Origin: Candidatus Hydrothermales bacterium
GTDB taxonomy: Bacteria > Hydrothermota > Hydrothermia > Hydrothermales > JAJRUZ01
Length of the DNA stretch: 64,000 nt
Assembly (NCBI GenBank): GCA_039630235.1
Contig: JBCNVI010000007.1
Span: forward strand, 20,365 to 84,364
Direction of reading: 5' to 3'
The position numbers were made by a program, and so were the translations under genes. The notes under the pieces are model-generated. The model had not been told where the DNA came from. It ran no database searches and saw nothing but the letters and a program-made list of their open reading frames with translations. Below, piece after piece: positions 7,434-37,511 of this stretch (position 1 is its first letter; each line of letters begins with the position of its first letter).

Positions 7434-7471
7434 GGGGTAAAAGCGGTTCTGGTATATATAAAAGGGAAGGG

Positions 7472-7502
7472 CCCCTCCCAAAAATGGGAGGGGTCTTTTT
7501 TT
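7472..7502 (+). terminator. Rho-independent terminator downstream of the BNR-repeat gene
   Basis: Perfect 8-bp stem CCCCTCCC/GGGAGGGG with loop AAAAAT, followed by TCTTTTTTT. Confidence 0.65.
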
Positions 7503-7511
7503 AGATAATAT

Positions 7512-9140
7512 ATGAAGCTCTTGCTATTAGCATTTCTTTTAAGCCAAGGTGAAGTTAAAATAATCGAGCTGATAAAATCTAACAGGATAAAAGAAGCAGA
7601 GAGTGAAATAAGAAGTCTGCTTAAAAGGGGTGAAAGAGGAGAAAAAATCGATTATCTTTTTTTTTTTTTATATTCTTTTGAAAAACACGACTCTGTCATA
7701 ATTTATTCAAATATATTCTTGAGCACTTACCCTAAAAGTGAACATAGGGCAGAAGTTTTATACATGCTTGCAAAAAGTTATGAAAAAATTAATTTTTTAG
7801 TTAGAGCCCTCGAAAGCTATATTGCTATATTGAAATACAGAGACTCACCCTATTTTAAAGAGGCTGAAACAAAAGCTTTAGATCTTTCAAAAAAATTATC
7901 TTTAAAAGAATTATTGAGAAATATTAATAAGCTCAGAGATTTTGAAATTTATCCAGATGTTTTATTTATAGCTTACGAAAAGGCAAAACAAGAAGGAGAT
8001 TTAAGGGCTCAAGAGGAAATCATTGAAGTTTTAAAAAGAGAGTTTCCTGAACATAAAAAAACTAAGGAAATTGCAAAAATTTACACAAAAAAAGAAAAAG
8101 AAACAGAACCTATTTTTAGGTTAAAAAAATCAAAAGATATCTTTATTTACCTTCCACTTTCAGGACCAGATAGTTTGTTGGGACAAGAATTTTTAAAGGG
8201 TTTTGAACTTTCATTTAAACATCAGAATTATAAGGTTTTTGATACGAGGGATGATCCTTTATATACATATAAATTACTTGAAGATCATTTTAATTACGAT
8301 TATGACTTTAAAATCTTAATAGGACCTCTTTTGAGTAAAAGCCTTTACTTAGCTCTTCCTTATTTTGCAAAAAAAGGAGATAAAGTGTTTATAGTCCCTG
8401 CCCTATCTTACATTAGAGCCTGTGAATATGGAGAAAATATTATAACTCTTTCAAACTCACTTTATCTTGAAATTAAAGCACTTATAGAAAGATTTATTGT
8501 GCCAAATAATATTAATGAAATATGTGTTCTTTTACCAAAAACCGATGAGGGAGAAAGTATTACATCTTTGCTGATAGATTTACTCAGAAATAGAGGTAAG
8601 ACTTTTTACCAATTTTTTTCAGTTGATTCACTTGATTTTCAAAATAAAATAGATCAGATAATTAATTTTTTTCAAGATACAAGTGGTCCAGAAGTTATTG
8701 TTTTTCCTTCAGGAACAGAGGAGTCCCTTTTATCTTTCTCTTCTCAAATTGTCTTTAAGGGATTAAGATCCAAAATACTTACAACTGGAAAATTTACAAC
8801 AGAGGATTTTGCAATTAAGTCTAATAGGTACGTGGAAGAAAGAGTAATTTTTGCCAGTGCCGGTATATGGGATAACTCTGTCTCAGAAAAGTTTATTTCT
8901 GAGTTTAAATCTAAATACGGTTATTATCCAAGCAAAATAGCTTCAATTGGCTACGACATCGGGAGTATTCTAAATTTTGCCCTTGAAAAAAATATAACTG
9001 GCTCATTTTATTTATTAAATTTCTTAAAAGATTTAGCGTATTTTAAAGGCTCCTTTAAGTTTTATCTTTTTGGTAAAAACATAGAGAATGTAAAGTTTTA
9101 TAAAATCAAAGATAAAAAATTTGAGCTCCTTGAATTTTGA
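7512..9140 (+). CDS. LpoA-like periplasmic protein: N-terminal TPR-like helical domain plus C-terminal type-I periplasmic-binding-protein fold
   Basis: Signal peptide MKLLLLAFLLSQG. The N-terminal half is helical/TPR-like. The C-terminal half has the Leu/Ile/Val-binding-protein-like pattern (ILIGPLLSKS..; ASIGYDIGSIL). Contains a 13-T homopolymer at 7657-7669. Confidence 0.4.
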   Translation: MKLLLLAFLLSQGEVKIIELIKSNRIKEAESEIRSLLKRGERGEKIDYLFFFLYSFEKHDSVIIYSNIFLSTYPKSEHRAEVLYMLAKSYEKINFLVRALESYIAILKYRDSPYFKEAETKALDLSKKLSLKELLRNINKLRDFEIYPDVLFIAYEKAKQEGDLRAQEEIIEVLKREFPEHKKTKEIAKIYTKKEKETEPIFRLKKSKDIFIYLPLSGPDSLLGQEFLKGFELSFKHQNYKVFDTRDDPLYTYKLLEDHFNYDYDFKILIGPLLSKSLYLALPYFAKKGDKVFIVPALSYIRACEYGENIITLSNSLYLEIKALIERFIVPNNINEICVLLPKTDEGESITSLLIDLLRNRGKTFYQFFSVDSLDFQNKIDQIINFFQDTSGPEVIVFPSGTEESLLSFSSQIVFKGLRSKILTTGKFTTEDFAIKSNRYVEERVIFASAGIWDNSVSEKFISEFKSKYGYYPSKIASIGYDIGSILNFALEKNITGSFYLLNFLKDLAYFKGSFKFYLFGKNIENVKFYKIKDKKFELLEF

Positions 9141-16303: not shown

Positions 16304-16684
16304 ATGCCCACCATAAACCAATTAGTAAGGCATAAGAGAAAAAAGAAAAATAGAAAATCAAAAAGCGTTGCACTTGAAGGTTGTCCACAAAAAAGAGGCG
16401 TCTGTATCCGCGTATACACAACAAGCCCTAAAAAACCTAACTCAGCCCTAAGAAAAGTAGCTAAGGTGAGACTTTCAAACGGTAGAGAAGTTATAGCCTA
16501 TATACCAGGAGAAGGCCACAATCTTCAAGAACACTCAGTCGTTCTTGTAAGAGGTGGTAGAGTAAAAGATTTACCTGGAGTGAAATATCATATTGTAAGA
16601 GGAGTTTACGACTGTGCAGGTGTAGCAAATAGAGCAAGTTCAAGAAGTCTTTATGGAACAAAAAGAAAAAAGAAGGAGGGATAA
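16304..16684 (+). CDS. rpsL: 30S ribosomal protein S12
   Basis: [65 protein letters not shown]: canonical S12. Confidence 0.95.
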
Positions 16685-17155
<471 letters not shown>

Positions 17156-17229
17156 GATTTATGAAATTTTAGAAAAGGAAAAAGCAAGGGAGGCAAACTT
17201 TTTAAATTTAAAATTTCGGGGTCCTTCAA

Positions 17230-19278
17230 ATGGATATAAGTAAAATACGTAATATCGGTTTTGCTGCCCATATAGATGCAGGAAAAACTACTACTACTGA
17301 GAGAATTCTTTTTTATACTCACAGAATACACAGAATGGGTGAGGTAGATGAGGGAACAGCTACAATGGACTATATGATTCAAGAAAAAGAAAGAGGAATT
17401 ACAATTCAAGCAGCTGCAACTTTCTGTGAGTGGAAAAATTACTTAATACATATAGTAGATACACCAGGCCACGTTGATTTTACAGTAGAGGTCGAAAGAT
17501 CTTTAAGGGTTCTCGATGGACTTGTAATAATATTCTCAGCAGTTGAAGGTGTAGAACCACAGTCTGAAACTATATGGAGACAGGCTGATAAGTTCAAAGT
17601 TCCAAGAATAGCCTTTATTAACAAAATGGATAGACAGGGAGCTGACCATTTGAGAGTCTTAGGCCAAATCGAAAAAAAATTTAATATTAAACCACTTTTA
17701 CTTGAATGGCCAATCGGCATAGAGAACGATTTTATAGGCGTCATTCACTTCGTTGAAAACAAAAAAATGATCTGGGATAAAGATGAACTGGGAGTCGAAT
17801 ACTCTGTTCTGCCAATAGATAATATTGCCGGAGAAGCAAAAAGCTATTACGAAGATATGATCTTAACTTTGTCAGAAATAGACGAAGGTATTGCAGATGA
17901 ATATTACGAAAAGGGTTTTGTAAGCCCAGATAAAATTAATAGCGCTATAAGAAAAGGAGTCTTAGAGAAAAGATTTTTACCAGTTCTTATTGGTTCAGCA
18001 TTAAAAAATAAAGGTATTCAACCTCTTTTAGATGCAATCTGTGAATATTTACCATCTCCAATAGATAGAGGAAAAATAAAAGGCATAGATCCCTTAACAA
18101 GAAGTGAAATTTATAGAAGTCCTGATCCGAGTGACCATTTCAGTGGAGTTGTTTTTAAAGTTCAAATTTTCGAAGATATGGGTAAGTTATGTTATTTGAG
18201 AATATATTCGGGAAAGATTACACAAGGGGAGAAAGTATACAATCCAAGAACAAATGAAGTTATAAGGGTGCAGCGTCTTTATAGGCTCCATGCAAATAAA
18301 AAGAATGCAATAAGAGAAGCTGTATGTGGTGAAATAGTTGGAATAGTTGGACCTAAAGAGGTAAGAACCGGAGACACTATTTGTCCTCTCGAACACTCAA
18401 TCTTATACGAAGAGATGCTTTTTCCAGAACCTGTTGTTTCACAGGCTATTGAACCGATTTCCTCAAAAGATTTCAAGAAAATAGAGGAAAGACTCAAGTG
18501 GATGGTAGAAGAAGATCCAACCTTCAATTTAAAAATAGATGAGGAAACTGGTCAAATTATAATATCCGGTATGGGAGAACTTCATCTTGAAATTATACTG
18601 GATAGACTAAAAAGAGACCATAAACTTGAATTTAGAGCCTTAAAGCCTCAAGTTCACTATAGAGAAAGTATAAGTTTAAGCGGAGAATTAGTAAAAGAAT
18701 TTAAGAAAAATATTGGTGGGGAGGAGCAGTTTGGTAAAGTAATGTTACAAGTTGAGCCAATTAAAGGAGCAATGAGAAACGAAATATTGATAGATGATAG
18801 TCTCAACCTGAGGGAGGATTTAAAAGAGGTTGCTTATAGCTCTATGAGGGAAATCCTCGATTTCGGTGTAATAGCAGGATATCCCCTAATAGATGTGAGA
18901 ATGGCTCTTAAAAAAGTTTATAACTTGGAGAAAACGACACCGATAGGTCTTAAGTTAGCTATACATGAAGCAGGAAAGGAGCTTATAAAAATGGCAGAGC
19001 CTGTGTTACTTGAGCCGTATTCTTACGTAGAAATAACAGTGCCTGTTGAATTTATCGGAAATGTGATTCAAGATCTCATGCAGCGGGAAGCCGAGATAAT
19101 AGAGAAAGTATCCTTAGAAGGCTCTGATCTTGTAAAAATAGTTGCTGAAATGCCACTGAAAAATACTTTCGGATACGTTACTGTTTTAAGATCACACACA
19201 AAAGGAAAGGCAAATATCTGGATGAAAGTTAGTTCATTTAAGGCAGCTAAACTTGAAAAAAGTGATTTTTTATTATAA
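17230..19278 (+). CDS. fusA: Elongation factor G
   Basis: G1 AHIDAGKTTTTERIL, DTPGHVDF, NKMDR. 682 aa five-domain EF-G in str-operon position. Confidence 0.9.
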   Translation: MDISKIRNIGFAAHIDAGKTTTTERILFYTHRIHRMGEVDEGTATMDYMIQEKERGITIQAAATFCEWKNYLIHIVDTPGHVDFTVEVERSLRVLDGLVIIFSAVEGVEPQSETIWRQADKFKVPRIAFINKMDRQGADHLRVLGQIEKKFNIKPLLLEWPIGIENDFIGVIHFVENKKMIWDKDELGVEYSVLPIDNIAGEAKSYYEDMILTLSEIDEGIADEYYEKGFVSPDKINSAIRKGVLEKRFLPVLIGSALKNKGIQPLLDAICEYLPSPIDRGKIKGIDPLTRSEIYRSPDPSDHFSGVVFKVQIFEDMGKLCYLRIYSGKITQGEKVYNPRTNEVIRVQRLYRLHANKKNAIREAVCGEIVGIVGPKEVRTGDTICPLEHSILYEEMLFPEPVVSQAIEPISSKDFKKIEERLKWMVEEDPTFNLKIDEETGQIIISGMGELHLEIILDRLKRDHKLEFRALKPQVHYRESISLSGELVKEFKKNIGGEEQFGKVMLQVEPIKGAMRNEILIDDSLNLREDLKEVAYSSMREILDFGVIAGYPLIDVRMALKKVYNLEKTTPIGLKLAIHEAGKELIKMAEPVLLEPYSYVEITVPVEFIGNVIQDLMQREAEIIEKVSLEGSDLVKIVAEMPLKNTFGYVTVLRSHTKGKANIWMKVSSFKAAKLEKSDFLL

Positions 19279-19318
19279 AATTAATTTAATTAATTTTTAG
19301 ACAAAAAATTTTAAATAA

Positions 19319-19332
19319 AGGTTCGAATCCCC
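19319..19332 (+). other. tRNA T-arm-like element AGGTTCGAATCCCC, 19 nt upstream of the tuf ATG
   Basis: Canonical GGTTCGAATCC T-arm sequence in the fusA-tuf spacer. No flanking cloverleaf. No SD sequence between it and the ATG. Confidence 0.3.
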
Positions 19333-19351
19333 AAAATTTTTTTATTTAGAA

Positions 19352-20566
19352 ATGAGTAAGCCTAAATTTGAGAGAAAGAAGGTACATGTTAATGTTGGTA
19401 CAATAGGTCATATTGACCATGGTAAAACTACTTTAACTTCTGCTATCACAAAGGTGCTATCTAAGTATGGTCTTGCCGTAGAGCAGGAGTATGAGCAAGT
19501 AGCAAAGGCTGATGTTAAGCTCTTTAGGAGGGATGAAACTAAGATTTTGACTGTTAACCTTGCCCATGTTGAGTATGAATCAGAAAAAAGACACTATGCT
19601 CACATTGATTGTCCAGGTCATCATGACTACATAAAGAACATGATAACAGGTGCTGCTCAAATGGACGGTGCAATTTTGGTAGTTTCAGCCGTTGATTCAG
19701 TGATGCCCCAAACAAGGGAACATGTTCTTTTGGCAAGACAAGTGAATGTACCGTATATAATTGTATTCATCAATAAAGTAGACGCAATAGATGACCCTGC
19801 AATAGTGGATCTTGTTGAAGAAGAGGTTAGAGATCTTCTGAAAAAATACGAGTTTCCTGGAGACGCAGTTCCAGTTATAAGAGGAAGTGCTTTAAATGCA
19901 ATGAGATGTGGCTGTGGCAAAAGGGAATGTGAACATTGTGGTAAGATCTGGGAGCTAATAGATGCAATGGATAATTATATTCCGGATCCTATAAGAGAGA
20001 TAGATAAACCCTTCCTGATGGCTATAGAAGATGTTTTTTCAATTACGGGTAGAGGAACAGTTGTAACAGGAAGAGTCGAAAGAGGAATTTTAAGACCCGG
20101 AGATGAGGTAGAAATTGTTGGGTTTGGTCCGACTAGAAAGACTGTAGCTACATCTTTGGAAATGTTTAGAAAAGTTCTTGATGAGGCAAGGGCTGGAGAT
20201 AACGTTGGAGTTCTCTTAAGAGGAATTGGTAAAGATGAGGTAGAAAGAGGAATGGTACTTGCAAAGCCTAATACTATAAATCCTCATACCAGATTTAGGG
20301 CTCAAGTATATGTTCTCACAAAGGAGGAGGGAGGAAGGCACACCCCATTCTTTTCTGGTTATAAACCTCAATTTTACTTCAGGACAACAGATGTAACCGG
20401 TTCAATTAAATTGCCCGAAGGTGTAGAAATGGTAATGCCTGGAGATCATGTTAACCTTGAGGTAGAACTAATGTATCCTGTGGCTATGGAAAAAGAGCTT
20501 AGGTTTGCTATAAGAGAGGGTGGAAAAACAGTTGGTGCAGGAATTATAACTGAAATAATAGAGTAG
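19352..20566 (+). CDS. tuf: Elongation factor Tu (with a Cys4 insertion in the domain-I loop)
   Basis: [41 protein letters not shown]. Thermophile-type loop ..[14 protein letters not shown] preceded by [13 protein letters not shown]. Confidence 0.95.
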
Positions 20567-20571
20567 AAAAT

Positions 20572-20895
20572 ATGCCAATAACAGAAAAGATAAGGATAAA
20601 GTTGAAAAGTTACGATGCAAGACTTATTGAAAAATCGGCAAAAAGAATAGCTTTAACAGCTCGTGGAACAGGAGCTGATGTAAGGGGCCCTATTCCATTA
20701 CCAACGAAAAAAACATTAATAAGCGTAATAAGAAGTCCTTTTGTTCATAAAACTTCAAGAGAACAGTTTTTTTATTGTGTTCATAAGAGATTAATAGAGA
20801 TAATAAATCCGACCCAAGAGACAGTTGAAAAGCTCTCAAAGCTTGATCTTCCAGCAGGTGTCGATGTGAAGATTGAAGTGAGTGTGGAAAGATGA
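20572..20895 (+). CDS. rpsJ: 30S ribosomal protein S10
   Basis: IRIKLKSYDARLIEKSAKRIA..RGPIPLPTKK..SPFVHKTSREQFE-like: canonical S10. Confidence 0.95.
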   Translation: MPITEKIRIKLKSYDARLIEKSAKRIALTARGTGADVRGPIPLPTKKTLISVIRSPFVHKTSREQFFYCVHKRLIEIINPTQETVEKLSKLDLPAGVDVKIEVSVER

Positions 20896-21539
20896 AAGCA
20901 CTCCTGGCAAAAAAGATTGGCATGACAAGAATACCCTTTGAAGAAAGTATTGTTCCCTGTACACTACTACATGTAGATAATGTATATGTAATGGGAATAA
21001 GAACTAAAGAAAAAGACGGTTATTCGGCAGTAAAGCTCTGTATTGGAAGAAAAAAGGCAAAAAAGATGAAAAGGCCCCTTTTAGGGGAGTTTAAAAAGGT
21101 TTTTGGAGATAGAGAAGAGTATCCTGCTGAGTTAATTAAAGAAGTAAGGGGGGAATTTGATCCGCAAATTTATAGCGTTGGAGCAGAACTTTCACCTTCA
21201 ATTTTTGAGCCTGGAGAGGTTGTAGATGTTATTGGGTATACAAAGGGAAGAGGTTTTGCTGGGGTTGTTAAAAGATGGGATTTTGCTGGAGGACCCGCTT
21301 CCCACGGTTCAATGTCTCATAGAAGACCTGGTTCAATAGGTCAAACAACAGATCCGGGAAGAGTTTGGAAAGGAAAAAGGATGGCTGGACACTATGGAAA
21401 TGAAAGAGAGGCCGTTCATAACCTGAAAGTTGTATACGTTGATGTGGATAATAAGATTATAGGTCTAAAAGGATCTGTTCCTGGTCCAAATGGGTCGGTT
21501 GTAATTATAAGGAGTCCTAAAAGGGTAAAAAAGAAATGA
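20892..21539 (+). CDS. rplC: 50S ribosomal protein L3
   Basis: MKALLAKKIGMTRIP..GYTKGRGFAGVVKRW.. L3 signature. 4-nt overlap with rpsJ. Confidence 0.95.
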   Translation: MKALLAKKIGMTRIPFEESIVPCTLLHVDNVYVMGIRTKEKDGYSAVKLCIGRKKAKKMKRPLLGEFKKVFGDREEYPAELIKEVRGEFDPQIYSVGAELSPSIFEPGEVVDVIGYTKGRGFAGVVKRWDFAGGPASHGSMSHRRPGSIGQTTDPGRVWKGKRMAGHYGNEREAVHNLKVVYVDVDNKIIGLKGSVPGPNGSVVIIRSPKRVKKK

Positions 21540-22183
21540 AAGCTAAAGTCTTTGATATAACAGGAAAAGAAGTTGGCGAAAGAGAATTGCCCCACTATAT
21601 TTTTGATCTGAAACCTAACATACATTTACTTTGGCTAGTGACAAAATATTACTTATCAAGATGGAGAGTGGGGTCGGCAAATACAAAAACAAGGGGAGAG
21701 GTAAGAGGTGGTGGAAGAAAACCCTGGCCTCAAAAACATACTGGTTGGGCAAGACACGGATCTATTAGATCTCCAATATGGAGAAAGGGGGGAGTTGTTT
21801 TCGGCCCAAAACCAAGAGATTTTTCAATAAGTGTTCCCTATAAGGCCAGGCTAAAAGCTCTATATATAGCATTAAGCGATAGAGCAAGAGATAAAAGGAT
21901 CAAGGTGTTAACAGGTCTAAATGATTTAGCGCTAAAAACAAAAGAGGGGGAGAGGGTTATAAGTAATCTCGGTTTAAATGATACAAAGGTTATTCTTCTA
22001 TTCGCAGACAATGAAAGAAAGCACTTTTTAGCCTTTAGAAATATTGAAAAGGTCACCTGTAAAAGAGCTATAGATGTTAATGCCTACGATATTTTAAATT
22101 CTAAATTTGTAGTTTTTTCGGATGAGGGCCTTAGTGAGTTTTTGAAAGTAAGGGGAGGGTTAAAAAGTGAAGAGTCCCTATGA
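21536..22183 (+). CDS. rplD: 50S ribosomal protein L4
   Basis: Position and size (215 aa). KPWPQKHTGWARHGSIRSPIWRKGGVVFGPKPR L4 signature. Confidence 0.93.
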   Translation: MKAKVFDITGKEVGERELPHYIFDLKPNIHLLWLVTKYYLSRWRVGSANTKTRGEVRGGGRKPWPQKHTGWARHGSIRSPIWRKGGVVFGPKPRDFSISVPYKARLKALYIALSDRARDKRIKVLTGLNDLALKTKEGERVISNLGLNDTKVILLFADNERKHFLAFRNIEKVTCKRAIDVNAYDILNSKFVVFSDEGLSEFLKVRGGLKSEESL

Positions 22184-22460
22184 TATTATAATTTCGCCCA
22201 TTATTACTGAGAAGGGAACCTTTTTAAGGGGGAGGTCAAATTACTACGTATTTAAAGTTAGAAAAGACGCCAATAAAAAGGAGATAAAGTGGGCAATTGA
22301 AAATCTTTACAAGGTAAAAGTTGAAAAGGTCAGAACTGTTAATGTTAAGCCAAAGCCAAAAAGGTTAAGACATAGACTATACGGCAGAACGTCTGCTTGG
22401 AAAAAGGCATATGTTAAATTAAAAGAGGGGGAAACAATACCTTTATATGAAGGAGTTTAA
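22167..22460 (+). CDS. rplW: 50S ribosomal protein L23
   Basis: YDIIISPIITEKGT..YVFKVRKDANKKEIKWAIENLYKVKVEKVRTVN: L23. Confidence 0.93.
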   Translation: MKSPYDIIISPIITEKGTFLRGRSNYYVFKVRKDANKKEIKWAIENLYKVKVEKVRTVNVKPKPKRLRHRLYGRTSAWKKAYVKLKEGETIPLYEGV

Positions 22461-22472
22461 AAAGGAGATAAC

Positions 22473-23294
22473 ATGGGTATAAAAAGATATAAGCCCTATA
22501 CGCCATCAAGAAGGTTTATGACAGGATATACCTTTGAAGAGATTACAAAGACAGAACCTGAGAAAAGCTTAGTTGTACCGCTAAAAAAGAAGGCTGGTAG
22601 AAACAACCAAGGTAGGATAACTATAAGGTTTAGGGGCGGGGGTCACAAAAGACTATATAGGATCATTGATTTTAAAAGAGATAAGTTTGGTATACCTGCA
22701 GAGGTTTTAAGTATTGAGTACGATCCAAACAGAACAGCAAGAATAGCCCTTTTGTGTTATAAAGATGGCGAAAAAAGATATATACTTGCTCCAGAGGGTT
22801 TAAAGGTAGGTGATGAGGTTGTTTCTGGTCCTGGCTCTCCCTTAAAAGTTGGAAATGCCTTACCACTTTCAGAAATCCCTGAAGGAATGGAAATTCATAA
22901 TATAGAACTTGTTCCTGGTAGAGGTGGTAAATTAGTAAAAGCTGCAGGATCTGCTGCTGTTATTTTGGCAAAAGAGGGAAATTATGCTCATGTTCAGCTT
23001 CCATCGGGTGAAATAAGACTTATAAACCAGAAGTGCTTGGCAACCTTAGGAAGAGTTTCAAATGTTGACCACGAGAACATAGTTATAGGAAAGGCAGGAA
23101 GAAAAAGATGGATGGGTAGAAGGCCTCATGTAAGAGGTACAGCAATGAACCCATGTGATCATCCTCATGGGGGTGGAGAAGGGAGAACAAAAGGTAAAAT
23201 TCCTAAAACTCCATGGGGGAAAATAACAAAGGGTAAAAAAACAAGAAATCCCAGAAAAGTTTCAAGTAGATTTATAATTAAAAGGAGAAAATAA
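22473..23294 (+). CDS. rplB: 50S ribosomal protein L2
   Basis: [15 protein letters not shown]2 signature. 273 aa. Confidence 0.95.
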
Positions 23295-23297
23295 ACT

Positions 23298-23597
23298 ATG
23301 GCAAGGTCAAGTAAAAAAGGAGTTTATGTAGATCTTAAGCTTTTAAAAAAAGTTTTAAAGGCAAAACAAAGTGGAGACACAACGCCCATAAAGACTTATT
23401 CACGAAGGAGCACCATTATCCCTGAAATGGTGGGACTAACGATACAGGTACACAACGGTAGAAAGTTTATTCCGGTTTATATAACAGAGCTTATGGTAGG
23501 GCATAAGCTTGGTGAGTTTTCACCAACAAGAACCTTTAGAGGACACAAGAGTAAAAGAGAAAAGGAAGCAGCAAAAGAAACAAAAAAAGAGGGGTAA
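23298..23597 (+). CDS. rpsS: 30S ribosomal protein S19 (with a Lys/Glu-rich C-terminal tail)
   Basis: [49 protein letters not shown]: S19. Confidence 0.95.
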
Positions 23598-23598
23598 A

Positions 23599-23952
23599 AT
23601 GGTTGAGGGAGTTGCAAGGATAAAGTATTTAAGAACTTCTTTTAAAAAGTCTAAGAGAGTTTGTGAGGCAATAAGAGGTAAAACTGTAAAAGAAGCCTTA
23701 GATATTTTATATTTCCTTACGAAAAAACCTGCTAAATTGTTATATAAGGCTGTAAAATCTGCATGTAATTCTTATGCTGTAAAAAAGGGAATTAAGTTTG
23801 ATGAAGTTGATTTAAAAAATTTAAGGGTTAAGATTTGTAAAGTAGATAAGGGTCCAACTTGGAGAATTTTAAGACCTGGATTTAGAGGGGTACCGCGTAT
23901 TGCAAGAAGACACACAGCTCATTTTACAGTTGTGGTAGAGGAGGTAAAGTAA
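23599..23952 (+). CDS. rplV: 50S ribosomal protein L22
   Basis: MVEGVARIKYLRTSFKKSKRVCEAIRGKTVKEALDIL.. L22. The track ORF start at 23509 overlaps rpsS out of frame; true start is ATG 23599, 2 nt after the rpsS stop. Confidence 0.92.
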   Translation: MVEGVARIKYLRTSFKKSKRVCEAIRGKTVKEALDILYFLTKKPAKLLYKAVKSACNSYAVKKGIKFDEVDLKNLRVKICKVDKGPTWRILRPGFRGVPRIARRHTAHFTVVVEEVK

Positions 23953-23953
23953 T

Positions 23954-24610
23954 ATGGGACAAAAAGTTCATCCTTATGGTTTTAGACTCGGTATACATAA
24001 GGATTGGAAGGCTCATTGGTTTGCTGATAGGAAGTCTGAATATGTAAAGTATTTCGAGGAAGATAATAAAATTAGATCTTATCTGAGGGAAAGATATAAA
24101 GATGCAAGGGTATCTGATATTGTTATTGATAGAGCTGGAGAGCAGATAACTGTGACGATTCATACTGCTTCTCCTGGTATGGTTATAGGTCAAAAGGGGA
24201 AAGAAATAGAACTTGTTAAAAAAGAACTTTCTACGTTTATAAAAAATGAGAACATTACTATACATGTTCAAGAGATAAGAGTTCCAGAACTTGATGCTCA
24301 GCTTGTTGCTGATGGTATTGCAAGAAGGATAGAACAGCAGGTATCTCATAGGAGGGCAATGAAAAGAGCAGTTTCCCAAGCTCTAAGGATGGGAGCAAAG
24401 GGTATAAAAGTTCAATGCAAGGGAAGACTTCAAGGAGCTGAGCTTGCAAGGAAAGAAGGGTATATGCAAGGTAGAGTTCCTTTACAGACTATAAGGGCAG
24501 ATATTGATTACGGTTTTTCGACTGCCTTTACAAGGTATGGAACAATAGGAGTTAAGGTTTGGATATATAAAGGTGATATTCTTGAAAAACCAGAAATCGA
24601 GGAGGTCTAA
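23954..24610 (+). CDS. rpsC: 30S ribosomal protein S3
   Basis: [30 protein letters not shown].. KH-domain plus S3 C-terminal domain. Confidence 0.95.
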
Positions 24611-24612
24611 AT

Positions 24613-25032
24613 ATGCTTCAGCCAAAAAGAATGAAATATAGAAAACAACATAGGGGAAGAAGGAAAGGAAAAGCTATTGATGGGTGTTATCTTGCTTTTG
24701 GTGAGTATGGTTTAAAGGCACTTGAGTCAGCCTGGATTAAGGCAAATCAGATAGAGGCTTGCAGGTTAGCTATTGGAAGATATTTAAAAAAGGGTGGTAA
24801 GTTATGGATAAGGATTTTCCCTGATAAACCTGTTACTAAAAAGCCTGCAGAAACGAGAATGGGAAAGGGTAAGGGAAATGTTGATCATTATGTGGCTGTT
24901 GTTAAAAGAGGTAGAATTCTTTTTGAACTTGCTGGTGTTTCAGAAGATGTTGCAAGGAGAGCTCTTGAGTTAGCCTCTCACAAGTTACCAATAAAAACAA
25001 GATTTGTGACTCAAAAGGAGGGAGGATGGTGA
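24613..25032 (+). CDS. rplP: 50S ribosomal protein L16
   Basis: [44 protein letters not shown]: L16. Confidence 0.95.
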
Positions 25033-31740: not shown

Positions 31741-31860
<120 letters not shown>

Positions 31861-31867
31861 TTATAGT

Positions 31868-31896
31868 ATTATAACTTAACTTTTTGAAAATTTCAA
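31868..31896 (-). promoter_or_regulatory. Consensus sigma70 promoter driving the orphan 5S rRNA (TTGAAA-17-TATAAT)
   Basis: On the minus strand TTGAAA (31891-31896), a 17-nt spacer, then TATAAT (31868-31873). The -10 ends 7 nt upstream of the mature 5S 5' end at 31860. Confidence 0.55.
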
Positions 31897-31901
31897 GTCA
31901 T

Positions 31902-32798
31902 TTAGTCTTTTGAGACGAATTTACCTTGATAACTGTCTCTCCTTTCAAGTTCTTTTTCTATATCATTAATTAACTTTAGTTTATTTTTACACCATAAAGG
32001 TGCAATAAGTAAATCCTCAGGAGCTTCGCCTGTTAGTCTTGCAATTAAAATATTTTTATCTAATCTTTCTATAAAATCACATACGATATTCACATATTCT
32101 TCCAACTCAAGAGGCCTGTATCTACCCTCTATAAACTCTCTCTCAAGTTCTGTGTATTTAACAACATGGAGTGGGTGAATTTTAACTCCATTGATTTTTA
32201 ACTTATTTAAGAAATGGGCTGTATTAATATAGTCTTTGTATGTATCACCGGGAAGGCCAATTATAACATGAGCCATTATTCTTATTTTTCTTTCCTTTAG
32301 TTTTAAGACCGATTCTTCAAAACACTTTAGGTCATGACCTCTTTTTGTTAATATCATACTCTTTTCATTTGCAGATTGAAGTCCAAGCTCTACCCATAGG
32401 TAGGTAATTTCATTTAGCTCAGAGAGAAGATCTAAAACATCATCAGGAAGACAATCACAGCGGGTTCCTATTGATATTCCTACTATATCAGGGTGAGTAT
32501 TCAAAGCTTCATAGTATACTTTTCGCATATAATTAACATCTCCATAAGTGTTTGTATAAGCTTGAAAATAAACGATAAATTTGTTTACTTTTTTTCTTTC
32601 TCTTAATATTTCTATCCCTTTAATTATCTGATCTTTTAAAGGAATGAATCTTCTTGCAGTTTCAGGAACAAAGGAAGGATTATAGCAATATATACATTTA
32701 GCTTGGGGTGGACACTTAAATCCTGCGTCTACCGAAATTTTCCAAACTTTTTCTTTAAAGATTTCCTTAAGGTGCTGAGAAAATTTATTATACCTCAT
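31902..32798 (-). CDS. Radical SAM protein, TIGR01212 (YhcC-like) family
   Basis: N-terminal Cys cluster FKCPPQAKCIYC, then a TIM-barrel-like region with HVIIGLPGDT, typical of the YhcC-type radical-SAM family. 11-nt overlap with the upstream dehydratase gene. Confidence 0.55.
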   Translation of the reverse strand: MRYNKFSQHLKEIFKEKVWKISVDAGFKCPPQAKCIYCYNPSFVPETARRFIPLKDQIIKGIEILRERKKVNKFIVYFQAYTNTYGDVNYMRKVYYEALNTHPDIVGISIGTRCDCLPDDVLDLLSELNEITYLWVELGLQSANEKSMILTKRGHDLKCFEESVLKLKERKIRIMAHVIIGLPGDTYKDYINTAHFLNKLKINGVKIHPLHVVKYTELEREFIEGRYRPLELEEYVNIVCDFIERLDKNILIARLTGEAPEDLLIAPLWCKNKLKLINDIEKELERRDSYQGKFVSKD

Positions 32799-33948
32799 CT
32801 ACCCCCTTTAATTTACTGTACCAAACATCCATAAATTTTTTAACCTTTTTTTCTTTTAGAAGTTTTTTGTAAAATCTAAAATTTTGCTTATAAAATTCAA
32901 AGGTTTTTTTGATTGCGTCATTAAAGTTCCAGCTATATTTAAAACCTAAGGAGAACAGTTTAGTTCCATCGAGTGAGTATCTTCTGTCGTGAGCAGGTCT
33001 ATCCTTTAAAAATTCAATAAATTTTTCTTTTTCGACTCCAGCAAGATCACATATAATTTCTGCAACTTTTATGTTTTCTAACTCAGTATTTCCTGGCAAG
33101 TTGTATTCCTCTCCTATTTTTCCTTTTTTAAAGATTAAATAAATTCCTCTCACAGCATCCTCTTGATAAATCCAGCTTCTTATTTGTTTTCCGTCGCCGT
33201 ATATAGGAATCTTTTCTTTCATCAAAACTTTCATAATAGAAAGGGGAATAAATTTTTCGGGAAATTGTCTTTCTCCAAAGACGTTTGAAGGTCTTACAAT
33301 TATCACTGGGAGACCGTAAGTTTTATAAAATGAGTAGACTAACCTGTCAGCGCCAGCCTTTGAAGCGGAATAGGGACTTGATGGATAAAGGGGTGAATCT
33401 TCCTTAGCTTTTCCCTCTATGATTTCACCGTATATCTCGTCAGTTGAAATATGTATAAATTTTCCTCTTTGTCCATTTATTTCTTTAAAGGCATAAAGCA
33501 AAAAGTATGTACCTACTACATCTGTGAACACAAATCTATGAGGGTACATGATTGACCTATCTACGTGGGTTTCGGCGGCAAAATGAAATAAATTGTCTAT
33601 GAAAGTCATAACCACTTTTAGTGGTTCTAAGTTAGTAATTGATGCTACAATCAAAAGTAATCTATCTTCTTTTGATATAAACTTTTTTATTAGATCTTCT
33701 AGTTCTTTTTTACTATAAATCTTTTTATAACTTTTTATTTTAGATCTTTCAAATTTAAAATAGTCTTTTCCGAACAACACCACAACAATGTTATCCTCTT
33801 TTAGAAAAGGAGATAAGTTAAAGGGTAAGCCTGAGTATGTGAGGGAGTCGTATACGATGAATTTTGAGTTTTTTTCTTCATTTATAAGATATCTTATAAA
33901 GTTTGAACCGATAAATCCAGCTCCACCTGTTACAAGGTATAGTCCCAT
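32788..33948 (-). CDS. NAD-dependent sugar-nucleotide dehydratase/epimerase (dTDP-glucose 4,6-dehydratase-like, extended SDR) with a ~50-aa insertion in the N-terminal Rossmann domain
   Basis: TGGAGFIGSNF NAD motif. Catalytic YSASK (Y-x3-K). ..FAAETHVDRSI.. RmlB-type motif. Insert ..FGKDYFKFERSKIKSYKKIYSKKELEDLIKKFISKEDRLLLIV.. lies between beta2 and the HVDRS region. Confidence 0.7.
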   Translation of the reverse strand: MGLYLVTGGAGFIGSNFIRYLINEEKNSKFIVYDSLTYSGLPFNLSPFLKEDNIVVVLFGKDYFKFERSKIKSYKKIYSKKELEDLIKKFISKEDRLLLIVASITNLEPLKVVMTFIDNLFHFAAETHVDRSIMYPHRFVFTDVVGTYFLLYAFKEINGQRGKFIHISTDEIYGEIIEGKAKEDSPLYPSSPYSASKAGADRLVYSFYKTYGLPVIIVRPSNVFGERQFPEKFIPLSIMKVLMKEKIPIYGDGKQIRSWIYQEDAVRGIYLIFKKGKIGEEYNLPGNTELENIKVAEIICDLAGVEKEKFIEFLKDRPAHDRRYSLDGTKLFSLGFKYSWNFNDAIKKTFEFYKQNFRFYKKLLKEKKVKKFMDVWYSKLKGVDEV

Positions 33949-33952
33949 CTAA

Positions 33953-34678
33953 TTATTTTATAAAAAAATAATTTCTTCCTTTAAAGTTAAGAAGCTCAAA
34001 ATCTACATCTATGAAATCTTTTAGGAGTTCAGGCGTTTCAAAAATTTTATGCTTTTCTATGAAAAGAGAATTGCTACCTTCTTTCATTAAAAGGAGGTAG
34101 TCACAAAACCTTAATATGATATTTAAATCGTGAAGAACAAAGATTAAAATTTTGTTTTCCCTTTTAACTTTATTTACGATTGTTTCAAAAATATATAGGG
34201 TATTTTCAAAATCAAGGTGTAAATTAGGCTCATCAAGAATAAAAACCTCTGGATCCTTAATTAAGGAGCGTGCCAATAAAACCTTTTGTTTTTGACCCCC
34301 TGAAATTTCAGTAAATTTTTTATTCCTAATTTTATAAAGATCAAATAGATTTAAAACTGAATTTATCCTATCTTCTTTAACGTTTCTATAGGGGTATAAA
34401 CCAAGTTCAACCATCTCGTAGACTGTAAAGGGAACCTCAGATTCGTAAAATTGTGGAAGATAGGAAATTTTTTTTGATCTTGACAATGCATCCATTTTAA
34501 ATATATTTTCACCGTCAATAAGCACCTCACCACTTAGAGGTTTGAGTATTCCCGAAATAGTTCTAAGAAGAGTTGTTTTACCAGAACCGTTTTTCCCAAA
34601 TATAGCTAAGATTGATCTTTCATTTAGAGAAAAAGAGAGCCCCCTTATTATAGGGGACCCTCTATAACCGCCAAACAA
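33953..34678 (-). CDS. ABC transporter ATP-binding protein (orphan; no permease partner in the operon)
   Basis: Walker A GKNGSGKTT, signature LSGGQKQK, Walker B ILDEPNLHLD, H-loop VLHD. The N-terminus is ~15 aa shorter than usual for the annotated ATG, so the true start may be an upstream non-ATG codon. Confidence 0.75.
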   Translation of the reverse strand: MFGGYRGSPIIRGLSFSLNERSILAIFGKNGSGKTTLLRTISGILKPLSGEVLIDGENIFKMDALSRSKKISYLPQFYESEVPFTVYEMVELGLYPYRNVKEDRINSVLNLFDLYKIRNKKFTEISGGQKQKVLLARSLIKDPEVFILDEPNLHLDFENTLYIFETIVNKVKRENKILIFVLHDLNIILRFCDYLLLMKEGSNSLFIEKHKIFETPELLKDFIDVDFELLNFKGRNYFFIK

Positions 34679-34683
34679 ATTTC

Positions 34684-34965
34684 TTACTTGTAGTTTAATC
34701 TTAAACCCTTCTCAGGAATTTTAATTTGCCTTTTGTCTTTAAGAGAGGTACCCTGTTTTCTTTCGTTTTCTCTCATTTTCTTTAGGAAGTTATCAACTAT
34801 TCCATCGCCATCTCTATCCAAAGTATCTCCTTTAATTTTATAGATTCTTTCACTTTTTATCCTCTTCTCATGATATTTTTCATAAGATTTTTCACTACCT
34901 GGTTTTACCCTTACTTCTATGGAGAATAAATAAACCGGTATAAAAAGAAAAAGGAGTTTTTTCAT
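34684..34965 (-). CDS. Small secreted protein (93 aa), hypothetical
   Basis: Signal peptide MKKLLFLFIPVYLFS. K/E/R-rich mature part with a DRDGDGIVDN (Ca-binding-like D-x-D-x-D-G) motif. 4-nt overlap with the upstream gene. Confidence 0.5.
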   Translation of the reverse strand: MKKLLFLFIPVYLFSIEVRVKPGSEKSYEKYHEKRIKSERIYKIKGDTLDRDGDGIVDNFLKKMRENERKQGTSLKDKRQIKIPEKGLRLNYK

Positions 34966-36212
34966 TTTCTTGACCTTCTATTTTCAATTCTATTTTCTGG
35001 TATTACTCCCCTGCCTTTCAAATTAATCTTCTCTATAGAGCCAGGAATTTTAATGGGTCTCTGCTTTTCAATTTTCCTTTGCCTTTCATATTCAGAATTT
35101 TCTCTATAAGATCTATTCAGTTCTCTTTTTTCCTCAAAAGTTCTTTCTTCAAATTTTAACCTTTCCTCTTCCATTATGGGGACTCTTCTTTTTTCAGAGG
35201 ATTCTCTTTCAAAATCCCTTATTTTTTCTGTATCCTCAAAAGTTTTTTCCTGAGGCCTTTCTTTTTCAAATTTTAACCTTTCTCTTTTCACCTCAGAGAT
35301 TCTTCTTTTTTCGGAAGGTTCAGTTTCTATTTTTCGTATGGTTTTAACTTCTCTTTCAAAGTTTCTCACTTCTTTTATATCTTCTATTTCCGGAAGTTGT
35401 AATTTTTCTCTGATCTTAATTATTTCTCTAACTTCTTTACCTTCAACAAGTCCTGCTTCTTTTACTCTTAATCTCACATTCTTTTCAATTTCTTGCAAGC
35501 GAATTTTTCTTTCACGTGTAATTTCTTTAGAAAATTCCCATCTTGTCCTTACTCTGTATCTTTCTGGAATAGATTTTACATAACGAGGAATATAAACATA
35601 CCTATATTCATAGACTCTAATTTCGTATATAGGACAGAAGTCAAAGTAAAAGTAGAAGAAGATGCGCGGGTAGTGGCAGTCATAACAAAACCAGGGTGCT
35701 GGATGATAGATGTAATACCTGGGAATAACGTAGTAGCACGTCCAAGCACCAAAATAAATTTTGGGAAACCAAAAAGGTGGCCTGAATTTGAAAACTAAGA
35801 CAAAATCTACATCATCGTAGTCGTAATAAATAAAGGAATGGGGAGGTAAAGGTTCAAAGCATTCATCTGGAATATCATATATAGGATAAGGTACAACTAC
35901 TGCGTAAATGTATTCGATACCTTGTTCGTAAGAAGGGAACCACTCTACATCATCGTAAAAATCGTCAGGCAAAACGTAGTGAACTCCAGCTTTTATATAT
36001 ACTGGTTTTCCTACAGGGAAGATCAATTTTGACTTTCCTGAGGGATCAATGTTAAATAAGTAAAGGTAGCCATCGACCTTAGAAATAAGATTAACTTTTA
36101 TCTTTTCACCTGCTGTATAGACTGACTTATGACCCCCTTCAACCCAGAGTTCCACCATTCTTGCCTGAAGTAAGGCAAAGGATACTATGGTTAAAAAGAT
36201 TAATTTTTTCAT
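34962..36212 (-). CDS. Secreted protein: DUF4384-like N-terminal beta domain, an extremely aromatic/Pro/Cys-rich segment, and a C-terminal E/K/R-rich repeat region
   Basis: Start set at MKKLIFLTIVSFALLQA (signal peptide); the track's longer start would overlap the upstream gene by 62 nt. Central segment ..CYYVIPRYYIYHPAPWFCYDCHYPRIFFYFYFDFCPIYEIRVYEYRYVYIPRY... C-terminal tandem ~30-aa repeats (SEKRRISEVKRERLKFEKERPQEKTFEDTEKI / SEKRRVPIMEEERLKFEERTFEEKRELNRS). Confidence 0.6.
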   Translation of the reverse strand: MKKLIFLTIVSFALLQARMVELWVEGGHKSVYTAGEKIKVNLISKVDGYLYLFNIDPSGKSKLIFPVGKPVYIKAGVHYVLPDDFYDDVEWFPSYEQGIEYIYAVVVPYPIYDIPDECFEPLPPHSFIYYDYDDVDFVLVFKFRPPFWFPKIYFGAWTCYYVIPRYYIYHPAPWFCYDCHYPRIFFYFYFDFCPIYEIRVYEYRYVYIPRYVKSIPERYRVRTRWEFSKEITRERKIRLQEIEKNVRLRVKEAGLVEGKEVREIIKIREKLQLPEIEDIKEVRNFEREVKTIRKIETEPSEKRRISEVKRERLKFEKERPQEKTFEDTEKIRDFERESSEKRRVPIMEEERLKFEERTFEEKRELNRSYRENSEYERQRKIEKQRPIKIPGSIEKINLKGRGVIPENRIENRRSRK

Positions 36213-36222
36213 ATTAACCTCC

Positions 36223-37029
36223 TTATTCTGTTTTAGGGGATTTAAACCCCTTTGAAGGTTTAGAAAGTTCAGGGTTTCCCTCATCTAATTGATAGGCCCA
36301 TTCAAAGTACATACTATTATTTAAAATTTTTAAAATTCTTATTTTTGCAAAATGATTATGTTTAGTCCAAAAAACATAGATGTGTCCTTCAATTGCCTCT
36401 AAAATGCCGAGTTTAGACCAACCCTCTAAAGGTGCATAACTTATCTCATCAAAATTTTCAGCATAACCCATATCTTGAACAAATGTAAGTGTATCAGGCA
36501 CTATTATATATCCTATGTGAGTAGAGGTATCGTATTTAAAGTAAAAATCACAGTTTGGTGAAATATAGGGACATACTATTTGATGTTCAAAATCGAAACC
36601 TGAGAAATTTGGATTTATAAGATAGCTAAAAACAACATCTTCACCGTCAGGTCTTGGTGTATCAAATACTTTTTCAGGTGAAAGATCAGATTCGTTACCT
36701 GCTGTATCATAGGCTGATACAGCGTAGTAATATGTTATTCCGTTTTGGACGTTATAATCTATAAAATTTGTTATATTTGGTGGTAAGATTTCAATTTTAT
36801 TATAAGGTCCTTCATAGGAGAAACCTCTCCAGACAATATACCCGGCAAGATCTCTTTCAGTATTTGGGAGCCAATAAAGGTACACTCTTTTGTTGCCTGT
36901 TACAGAGTATACTCCTCTTGGTGGAGCTGGAGGTATGTTATCCTTATATGGAGTATGATATTCGTTGATTATACATCCTAAGGATAGAGAGAGTATTATC
37001 ATTATTGCTATTTTTTTAGTCCTTCCCAT
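36223..37029 (-). CDS. Lipoprotein with a fibronectin type III-like domain
   Basis: Lipobox MGRTKKIAIMIILSLSLGC. FN3-like segment PPAPPRGVYSVTGNKRVYLYWLPNTERDLAGYIVWRG..YYYAVSAYDTAGNES. Confidence 0.55.
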   Translation of the reverse strand: MGRTKKIAIMIILSLSLGCIINEYHTPYKDNIPPAPPRGVYSVTGNKRVYLYWLPNTERDLAGYIVWRGFSYEGPYNKIEILPPNITNFIDYNVQNGITYYYAVSAYDTAGNESDLSPEKVFDTPRPDGEDVVFSYLINPNFSGFDFEHQIVCPYISPNCDFYFKYDTSTHIGYIIVPDTLTFVQDMGYAENFDEISYAPLEGWSKLGILEAIEGHIYVFWTKHNHFAKIRILKILNNSMYFEWAYQLDEGNPELSKPSKGFKSPKTE

Positions 37030-37091: not shown

Positions 37092-37121
37092 TTGCACAAA
37101 GTTTGTTCAAAAAGTTATAAT
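37092..37121 (+). promoter_or_regulatory. Sigma70-type promoter for tRNA-Leu / ferredoxin (TTGCAC-18-TATAAT)
   Basis: TTGCAC at 37092-37097 and TATAAT at 37116-37121. tRNA-Leu begins 17 nt downstream of the -10. Confidence 0.4.
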
Positions 37122-37138
37122 TTTTATTCAAAGCTTAG

Positions 37139-37224
37139 GCCGGAGTGGCGGAATGGAAGACGCGGCGGACTCAAAATCCGCTCTCCTTCAAAGGGAGGTG
37201 AGGGTTCAAGTCCCTCCTCCGGCA
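37139..37224 (+). tRNA. tRNA-Leu (anticodon CAA), class II with a long variable arm
   Basis: Acceptor GCCGGAG/CTCCGGC. Anticodon arm GCGGA-CTCAAAA-TCCGC (CAA). Long variable arm. T-arm GAGGG TTCAAGT CCCTC. Discriminator A. CCA not encoded. Confidence 0.85.
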
Positions 37225-37241
37225 CAAATAAGGAGGAAAAA

Positions 37242-37511
37242 ATGGCCTATATCATCTGTGAACCCTGTATTGGTGTAAAAGATACAGCCTGTGTAGAAGT
37301 TTGCCCAGTTGATGCTATTCACCCAAGAAAAGATGAGCCTGAGTACGAAACTTCAGATCAACTGTATATAAATCCTCAGGTCTGTATTGACTGCGGTGCC
37401 TGCGAGTCAGTCTGCCCAGTTCAAGCAATTTACGCAGAAGATGCTGTTCCTGATAAATGGAAAGATTTCATCAAAAAGAACTACGAGCACTACGGTCTCA
37501 CACCTCCTTAA
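37242..37511 (+). CDS. fdxA: 7Fe-type ferredoxin ([3Fe-4S][4Fe-4S], Azotobacter/Thermus FdI-like)
   Basis: RBS AAGGAGG 7 nt upstream. MAYIICEPCIGVKDTACVEVCPVDAIH.. and ..CIDCGACESVCPVQAI cluster motifs. The track ORF start at 37092 runs across tRNA-Leu and is rejected. Confidence 0.85.
   Translation: MAYIICEPCIGVKDTACVEVCPVDAIHPRKDEPEYETSDQLYINPQVCIDCGACESVCPVQAIYAEDAVPDKWKDFIKKNYEHYGLTPP

Follow-up and report, generated by a model that had tools for sequence, protein, structure and literature searches.

Proteins resembling parts of the locus considered here belong to several known families. TonB and TolA (domain II) are proteins that span the periplasm with charged, low-complexity spacers, to which the ER/K single alpha-helices may be added; FecR-type domains are known periplasmic signalling modules; and RmlB makes precursors of surface polysaccharides (rml pathway). 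The HmuY proteins of Bacteroidota (PF14064; PDB 3h8t) are haemophore lipoproteins, and DUF4384 proteins (PF14326) form a family for which literature and structure searches returned neither a function nor a solved structure; what we found in the literature on DUF4384 and DUF6600 amounts to incidental mentions or nothing. We compared with these families a run of six minus-strand genes (genes 1 to 6) in a 64,000-nucleotide stretch of DNA, referred to throughout as the window, from a "Candidatus Hydrothermales bacterium" metagenome-assembled genome (MAG) of the WOR-3 lineage, whose proteins are identical to those of the window. A sequence-only reading of this DNA had suggested that the six genes could represent a single system of surface assembly or modification. 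Our comparison leads elsewhere: we consider it fairly probable that an envelope trio (genes 1-3) and three independent genes (genes 4-6) simply stand side by side here, the genome being very compact.

Make-up and distribution of genes 1-3

The trio encodes a lipoprotein with a fibronectin type III (FN3) domain, an exported partner protein and a small exported protein. Its features are as follows (window positions, strand; aa, amino acids):

36223..37029, minus strand: gene 1, lipoprotein of 268 aa with a signal peptide, the lipobox LSLGC and two beta domains
34962..36212, minus strand: gene 2, product of 416 aa, exported: signal peptide, DUF4384, aromatic/Cys core, then a low-complexity polycationic tail
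35895..36122, minus strand: DUF4384 domain of gene 2, residues 31-106 (PF14326, 46.9 bits against a cut-off of 27)
35538..35894, minus strand: aromatic/Cys core of gene 2, residues 107-225 (34% Y/F/W, 12% Pro)
35673..35687, minus strand: CxxCH motif of gene 2, C176-Y-D-C179-H180, invariant, with a third conserved cysteine, C193, 12 residues past His180
34965..35537, minus strand: tail of gene 2, residues 226-416 (54% E/K/R/D, net charge +11, C-terminus RRSRK)
34684..34965, minus strand: gene 3, small exported protein of 93 aa with a signal peptide, a DxDxDG loop and a Lys-rich tail
34792..34818, minus strand: calcium-loop-like DxDxDG motif of gene 3, D50-R-D-G-D-G-I-V-D58, with putative Ca2+ binding

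Genes 1-3 are also neighbours on one strand, often overlapping, in distant WOR-3 genomes, in Zixibacteria and in Gemmatimonadota, and the start-stop overlaps of genes 1/2 and 2/3 recur across phyla. In the distant WOR-3 loci L003, L004, L012 and L013, genes 1-3 alone remain together; the next genes in L003, L004 and L013 encode an M23 peptidase, an alanine racemase and a LysM protein. A Hydrothermia MAG has a FecR/DUF6600 protein in the slot of the DUF4384 partner.

Partner classes were scored on the gene directly 3' of the lipoprotein gene; 72 such genes were scanned with Pfam, and 79 loci had enough flanking sequence. DUF4384 was found in 23 of the 72 scanned partners and PEGA in 7 of the 72, the latter probably a subset of the DUF4384 proteins. 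Seven partners combine FecR with DUF6600, and about 10 are extremely Trp/Tyr-rich proteins with no Pfam match. The downstream gene encodes DUF4783 in 16 cases, mostly in Ignavibacteria (including Melioribacter), and DUF5683 in 10, in Poribacteria, with DUF3108 next. At positions +1 to +3, a clustered tail-bearing partner (DUF4384, FecR plus DUF6600, or Trp/Tyr-rich) is present in 45/79 loci; several of the eight unclassified loci also encode DUF4384/CxxCH proteins, which brings the total to about 45-50 of 79. The partners share a signal peptide, a beta-sandwich (or none), an aromatic stretch of up to 56% Y/F/W in 50 aa, and a long low-complexity tail. Every one of these tails carries a net positive charge, from +2 to +38 in its final 150 aa, and a K/R terminus is usual.

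The two halves of gene 2 are separate genes in about 9-10 genomes of WOR-3, TA06 and Stahlbacteria, where a gene for the aromatic CxxCH region and tail precedes a 205-aa DUF4384 gene. This alternation of fusion and fission argues that the two halves are functionally tied. The split loci are L016, L017, L022-L026, L028 and L031 (e.g., 6716-7786 and 7789-8400 in L028); the split aromatic protein has no Pfam match, a cationic tail, and up to 56% Y/F/W in 50 aa ('WYPWWWDWYWARCHWCHHF').

Judged from sequence, genes 1-3 are a conserved, co-localised and undescribed envelope module. The earlier statement that the run matches no described pathway holds for these three genes; genes 4-6 are ordinary genes.

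The N-terminus of gene 1, MGRTKKIAIMIILSLSLG-C, consists of a signal peptide and lipobox and marks the product as a bacterial lipoprotein; the lipobox cysteine, Cys19, is invariant in 90 homologues. A confident AlphaFold2 model (predicted local distance difference test, pLDDT, 90.8) places an FN3 domain ahead of a second all-beta domain. The former occupies approximately residues 35-125 and is a seven-stranded FN3 beta-sandwich; the latter spans approximately residues 128-250 and contains the invariant His216 and Tyr218. The Pfam scan assigned no family to gene 1, and structure and profile-to-PDB searches found no fold match for its second domain. Between residues 185 and 255 (window positions approximately 36265-36477), many polar residues of the second domain are invariant or nearly so (Q185, D186, E211, H216, Y218, D224, H226, K229, R231, Q247, N252, and E254), a set that suggests a binding or catalytic site.

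The lipoprotein family comprises at least 750 clusters in the protein database and retains approximately 45% identity over its full length across phyla. When one genome per species was scanned, at least 359 species genomes proved to hold it; they belong to WOR-3/Hydrothermota, TA06, Stahlbacteria, Zixibacteria, Ignavibacteria/Melioribacter, Eisenbacteria, Poribacteria and some Bacteroidota. It is also present in a Gemmatimonadota genome. In Zixibacteria, Ignavibacteria and Eisenbacteria (L007, L019, L020, L030, L034, L038-L040, and others), a regulator gene lies upstream or a kinase gene downstream of the lipoprotein gene. Three Eisenbacteria loci (L035, L060 and L084) carry, downstream of the FN3 lipoprotein, an extra lipoprotein of approximately 175 aa that has a charged tail and contains 'FCYDCHGYRYFDPYYDYC'. 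The gene next to it in L084 encodes a DUF4384 protein with a CxxCH of its own, so that the motif is doubled at least there; in L035 and L060 no DUF4384 partner was found beyond the extra lipoprotein.

Among described proteins, gene 1 may be compared with HmuY, which is likewise a lipoprotein with an all-beta domain and a closing '…Y.v.t.dg.yAKi.v…F.Y.Y' hairpin; it differs in having an extra N-terminal FN3 domain and no neighbouring TonB-dependent receptor. The window lipoprotein itself has no PF14064 match, and 18 of 90 homologues match the HmuY family below threshold only (best E 6e-4); a match at family level was not found. Profile alignment with hhalign against five HmuY-family structures gave 72% probability (P 3.5e-5), with the likeness limited to the last 36 columns and both haem-ligand histidines outside them; direct profile-to-PDB searches returned no HmuY match. 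These histidines, His134 and His166 of HmuY, are not conserved in the lipoprotein: in a longer single-sequence alignment the second pairs with a Glu, and an invariant His of the lipoprotein stands 4 residues past that Glu. We therefore set the HmuY lead aside as evidence of haem binding, since the likeness, traced with hhalign against one and then five sequences, is real but is confined to the C-terminal hairpin.

For gene 2, homologue alignment favours a start at 36212, and a longer open reading frame (ORF) reaching 36284 was set aside. The N-terminal domain, called DUF4384-like in the sequence-only reading, is a bona fide member of the family by the gathering threshold of PF14326, as are the domains of the 23 partners counted above; its low-confidence model resembles macroglobulin/Ig-like sandwiches. 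What distinguishes gene 2 from described DUF4384 proteins lies outside this domain, in the aromatic CxxCH core and the polycationic tail. Beyond residue 106 there is no Pfam match, and no other known family was found in Pfam or NCBIfam.

The aromatic stretch singled out by the sequence-only reading is real (52.8% Y/F/W/P over the 53 aa quoted) but holds four cysteines rather than five; the fifth cysteine of gene 2 lies upstream of it, and three are conserved. The CxxCH motif and C193 are invariant in 11/11 homologues, and this is the sole CxxCH in any plausible ORF of the window. Between residues 108 and 222 there are 47 invariant positions, even though the 11 homologues are only 34-75% identical overall to the window protein. 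These homologues are 11 clusters among 5.8 billion proteins. As a whole domain, the core was found in only four clusters, all from the same lineage (WOR-3/Hydrothermales), by a profile search of 1.84 billion representatives, so that the link of the core across phyla is carried by the short motif. That motif, as 'YPRY.CxDCH.P…C' or 'CHWCHH', recurs in TA06, Eisenbacteria, Bacteroidota and Gemmatimonadota, and in a count of the partners made with no preselection, His comes directly after CxxC in 21/22 cases. An exported protein with an invariant CXXCH recalls the c-type cytochromes; gene 2 differs from them in lacking any match to a cytochrome fold or family, in the beta-rich, Tyr/Trp-rich context of the motif, and in its third cysteine, and many orthologous partners are without the motif.

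The tail of gene 2 proved simpler than first described. In place of tandem repeats of approximately 30 aa there is one weak, genome-specific duplication in two copies, scoring 84 where shuffled sequences average 54±8 and reach at most 81, and no tandem repeats were detected at the DNA level in this region. The duplicated unit, approximately 31-47 aa within residues ~276-358, reads '…EKRRISEVKRERLKFEKE…' and '…EKRRVPIMEEERLKFEER…'. Its absence from the closest relative (69% identical) indicates that the tail evolves by local duplication. The structure prediction proposed in the sequence-only reading was carried out for gene 2; the AlphaFold2 model was poor (pLDDT 44), with parts of the tail predicted to be helical at low confidence. 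As a long, E/K/R-rich hydrophilic segment attached to a folded envelope domain, the tail may be compared with the spacers of TonB and TolA and with ER/K helices. Unlike TonB and TolA, gene 2 has no N-terminal anchor, no TonB/TolA C-terminal domain, and no ExbBD or TolQR neighbours; its charged segment is C-terminal and ends in a K/R cluster.

The start of gene 3 overlaps the stop of gene 2 by 4 nucleotides (nt). Gene 3 has no Pfam family and is too short for BLAST, which did not detect it beyond close relatives. It was followed instead by a signature of three elements: a signal peptide, a Lys-rich tail and a loop of the pattern 'F.D.[DN].[DN]G[IVF].D'. Such an ORF lies downstream of the partner in 27/82 loci, spread over all three partner classes, against a background of 0/1174 for the pattern among the other small plus-strand ORFs of the same loci. 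The D50-D58 segment of the window protein conforms to the EF-hand-like calcium-loop pattern, D-x-[DN]-x-[DN]-G with an acidic ligand after it.

Genes 4-6 and the surroundings of the run

The remaining features of the run and its boundaries are as follows:

34634..34663, minus strand: GC-rich hairpin (12 pairs) with a U-rich run after it, 15-45 nt into the ORF of the ABC ATPase
33953..34678, minus strand: gene 4, ABC ATPase of 241 aa from a TTG start, FecE/HmuV-like
32788..33948, minus strand: gene 5, dTDP-glucose 4,6-dehydratase (RmlB/RfbB type) of 386 aa (TIGR01181, 2hun)
33670..33804, minus strand: insertion of 45 aa in the Rossmann domain of gene 5, residues 49-93; the 2hun alignment breaks between residues 48 and 94
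31902..32798, minus strand: gene 6, radical SAM protein of the MnmL/YtqA/YhcC family, 298 aa (TIGR01212)
37139..37225, plus strand: divergent tRNA-Leu(CAA), upstream boundary
31742..31858, minus strand: stand-alone 5S rRNA gene, downstream boundary (Rfam, 110.5 bits)

All six minus-strand ORFs were confirmed with the ends originally given for them. From gene 1 to gene 6 they are spaced by +10, -4, +5, +4 and -11 nt, and the tight packing and overlap that had drawn attention to the run are real; they are nothing special in this genome, however, since 37/50 same-strand neighbour pairs in the window lie within 15 nt of each other and close packing is the norm. The window as a whole is 33% GC and approximately 95% coding.

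Genes 4-6 adjoin the trio in seven close Hydrothermales genomes only. All six genes are present in order in the close relatives L001, L002, L005, L006, L090 and L091, and the lipoproteins of L001 and L006 are 67-83% identical to that of the window. Local tblastn of the six window proteins against 89 loci placed genes 4-6 beside the lipoprotein gene in the close Hydrothermales only, and in 0 of ~78 other loci; L090 and L091 were examined separately and have the same arrangement. The flanks of the run behave like the run itself: a divergent ferredoxin gene keeps its place just as well in all seven close genomes, genes for pyruvate:ferredoxin oxidoreductase are syntenic wherever the contig reaches that far (L001, L002 and L090), and in one close genome a TPR gene stands between genes 5 and 6. 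The equal conservation of the flanking genes, together with the TPR insertion, indicates that the six-gene order is plain synteny among close relatives, and co-occurrence of the six genes beyond such synteny was not found. Of the single surface system put forward in the sequence-only reading, genes 1-3 survive as an envelope module, and the unity of all six fails on that reading's own terms.

The ABC ATPase assignment of gene 4 is secure (PF00005, 113.5 bits), with intact Walker A (GKNGSGKT), Q-loop (LPQ), signature (ISGGQ), Walker B (ILDEP) and H-loop (HD) motifs. Its closest relatives are of the haem/Fe-citrate/B12 type (HmuV/FecE/BtuD), the best NCBIfam match being a haem ABC ATPase; all three scores are below the equivalog cut-offs (HmuV, 148 vs. 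261 bits; FecE, 145 vs. 375 bits; BtuD, 135 vs. 537 bits). It is indeed an orphan, as first described: neither a permease gene nor one for a binding protein occurs in the ~6 kb to each side, and no permease stands beside it in any syntenic relative. Its membrane partner must be encoded elsewhere. Orthologues with at least 49% identity were found in the Hydrothermales clade only, always directly after gene 3, and the next matches are generic iron-complex ATPases at approximately 40% identity. Upstream of the TTG codon (34679-34699) the frame continues as 'IKLQVRNL', with no ATG, GTG or TTG, and matches the N-termini of the relatives, whose lengths are 180-250 aa as called by gene callers; a non-canonical ATT overlapping the end of gene 3 is the likely start.

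Gene 5 aligns with PDB 2hun (E 5.4e-76) and retains the motifs GGAGFIG (NAD site), STDEIYG (catalytic T-D-E) and YSASK (YxxxK). The insertion, estimated at approximately 50 aa in the sequence-only reading, measures 45 aa relative to 2hun and splits the TIGR01181 match in two, which accounts for a score below the cut-off (343 vs. 365.1 bits); relatives of gene 5 are 380-386 aa long.

Gene 6 was correctly placed in the YhcC/TIGR01212 type (329 bits against a cut-off of 180), with matches to both PF04055 (Radical_SAM) and PF16199 (Radical_SAM_C) and the Cys motif C-PPQAK-C-IY-C. Of this family, B. subtilis and S. mutans need YtqA/MnmL to make mnm5s2U (10.1101/2023.12.21.572861), and the E. coli enzyme YhcC turns cmnm5s2U-tRNA into nm5s2U under anaerobic conditions, both in vivo and in vitro (10.64898/2026.05.18.725915). 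Both studied branches thus act on tRNA cmnm5s2U, a housekeeping function, and by analogy gene 6 would do the same; caution has been urged against transferring annotation between subgroups of the family (10.1101/2023.12.21.572861). Compared with their described families, then, gene 6 scores above the TIGR01212 cut-off, gene 5 has its STDE/YxxxK residues intact and gene 4 has all ABC motifs, the differences being the insertion in gene 5 and, in gene 4, the sub-cut-off scores and the missing adjacent permease.

At the downstream end, the 5S rRNA gene begins 43 nt past the stop codon of gene 6, with a near-consensus promoter-like site of its own (TTGAAA-17-TATAAT at 31868-31896) and no linked 16S or 23S gene in the window. 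At the upstream end, the longest ORF (37092-37511, plus strand) crosses the tRNA-Leu gene; the true gene encodes an 89-aa 2x[4Fe-4S] ferredoxin starting at 37242, is kept in all close relatives, and is divergent from the trio. A scan for sigma-70 promoters found no more promoter-like sites than in shuffled sequence (24 vs. 23.9±5.0) and is therefore uninformative about operon structure; terminator-like sites are mildly enriched over shuffled sequence (10 vs. 4.2±2.2).

Farther away on the plus strand, the ORF lengths and N-termini at 16304-25032 resemble an operon of ribosomal proteins and elongation factors. It is followed, in the region to 30083, by Pfam-confirmed genes for MreB, MreC, a PBP2-type transpeptidase and RodA/FtsW, with a short ORF between MreC and PBP2. 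The MreB/MreC/PBP2/RodA genes occupy the other strand, at a distance of ~2 kb from the trio. The trio is repeatedly found near cell-wall genes, these being Mre/PBP2/RodA in the window and M23 peptidase/Alr/LysM in distant WOR-3.

Weighing the readings

The sequence-only reading would make the six genes one surface system, energised by the ABC ATPase and modified by RmlB-derived sugar and radical-SAM chemistry. The gene order kept in seven Hydrothermales genomes, the abutting or overlapping genes, the confinement of the ABC orthologue to this context and the role of RmlB in surface-polysaccharide synthesis all speak for it. Set against them are the absence of genes 4-6 from every lipoprotein locus searched outside the clade, synteny that extends to unrelated flanking genes and is broken once between genes 5 and 6, the equivalog match of gene 6 to MnmL/YhcC, a family that acts on tRNA, packing that is ordinary for the genome, and the conserved hairpin and U-run after gene 3. 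We regard the one-system view as very unlikely. The juxtaposition of an envelope trio with independent genes, which we prefer, has its own difficulties, and the following observations weigh against it or against the role proposed below for the trio. Since gene 4 orthologues occur only in Hydrothermales and always after gene 3, a clade-specific functional link of the ABC ATPase to the trio may still exist. The pairing of lipoprotein and partner is not universal, because DUF4783 or DUF5683 replaces the partner in other phyla. The hairpin, which may act as a terminator, attenuator or 3' stabiliser closing the three-gene unit, occupies the same place in all six genomes aligned (for instance, 9018-9043 in L090 and 9445-9462 in L001), with compensatory changes in two pairs, but the sequence that forms it is coding, and conserved Pro-Pro…Arg-Gly codons account for most of it; the hairpin hints at a terminator or attenuator and does not prove one. 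Finally, a scaffold or tether draws no support from the poor predicted model of gene 2.

Other explanations concern the trio alone. It might be a periplasmic accessory, sensor, or regulated target of a sigma54-type two-component pathway whose regulators are unlinked in the window organism. In 19 loci a same-strand response-regulator gene precedes the lipoprotein gene (sigma54/NtrC-type in the scanned representative, L007), a 1270-aa HAMP-HisKA-HATPase kinase is encoded downstream in 14 loci, and one alternative partner has a FecR-type domain; yet neither the window nor any WOR-3 locus has such a regulator next to the trio, the regulator cluster is partly joined through a generic receiver domain, and the linkage could be lineage synteny, pyrimidine genes being equally conserved upstream in Ignavibacteria. 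We consider this role unlikely. The proposal that the trio handles haem or metal, with covalent haem c or a Cys3His metal site at CxxCH, an HmuY-like lipoprotein domain and the HmuV-like ATPase serving the same process, is quite unlikely as well. Its attractions are an invariant, exported CxxCH found across phyla with His so regularly after CxxC, the weak HmuY matches and the hhalign result, the haem ABC ATPase as best match of gene 4 (148 bits), and lipoprotein histidines of which His216 is invariant and His226 nearly so. The evidence against it is stronger. The HmuY likeness excludes the haem ligands and is not recovered in direct profile-to-PDB searches, no cytochrome family in Pfam or NCBIfam matches gene 2, and the ABC score is far under its equivalog cut-off of 261. 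The motif, or any Cys at all, is missing from partners in Zixibacteria/Ignavibacteria and from those of the FecR/DUF6600 class, yet the histidines of the lipoprotein are conserved all the same. Cytochrome-c-dependent respiration has been reported for one WOR-3 subgroup only (PMC12542636), whereas the motif is present in Stahlbacteria and TA06 too. There is, lastly, the suspicion that the aromatic stretch and tail of gene 2 are artefacts, either of ORF over-calling or of noise in the composition of an AT-rich genome; one could cite for it the lack of a Pfam match past residue 106, the low model confidence and the low-complexity tail. Given the 47 invariant residues across 11 homologues, the motif in other phyla and a reading frame kept in all relatives, its probability is negligible, and the spurious-ORF idea was discarded on the strength of this conservation.

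Possible role and meaning of the trio

For the envelope trio of genes 1-3, composition, export signals, conservation, linkage and gene fusion are matters of observation, from which we infer interactions and a function; as a tentative best guess, this would be an envelope scaffold or tether. The FN3 lipoprotein would be lipid-anchored to a membrane, facing the periplasm, and would dock the folded DUF4384/aromatic core of its partner. The polycationic tail of the partner could span the periplasm as a spacer, or could bind anionic envelope polymers; the CxxCH…C site may stabilise the core through a metal, a cofactor or a disulfide; and the gene 3 protein would bind Ca2+. Together, the three proteins would form a structural or tethering assembly that possibly has a part in sensing too. 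A cultured WOR-3 isolate has both inner and outer membranes (PMC12285271), so that by analogy the periplasm or the outer membrane is where the proteins of the trio probably work.

A bolder version, to which we give a similarly low probability as to haem or metal handling, would see in the trio an undescribed cofactor-bearing envelope assembly, with haem c or a Cys3His metal centre held in the Tyr/Trp-rich core. Such an assembly might carry out redox, radical or electron-hopping chemistry, or handle haem, in the periplasm, the distantly HmuY-like lipoprotein domain serving as cofactor donor, and it would be widespread in WOR-3, Eisenbacteria, Gemmatimonadota and some Bacteroidota.

With the dissolution of the six-gene system, no pathway joining lipoprotein, ABC ATPase, sugar and radical-SAM chemistry is worth seeking at this locus. 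What it offers instead is a three-gene envelope module, without a name or a literature, whose lipoprotein belongs to no Pfam family and is found in mostly uncultured diderm lineages. Cultured representatives of Ignavibacteria/Melioribacter, and possibly the WOR-3 isolate sy37, could make the module testable if they carry it. Experiments could take hold of its pattern of fusion and fission, of the invariant CxxCH…C and of tails that are cationic throughout. If the trio is indeed a structural tether or a cofactor-bearing assembly, its description would fill part of the gap in knowledge of the envelope in these phyla.

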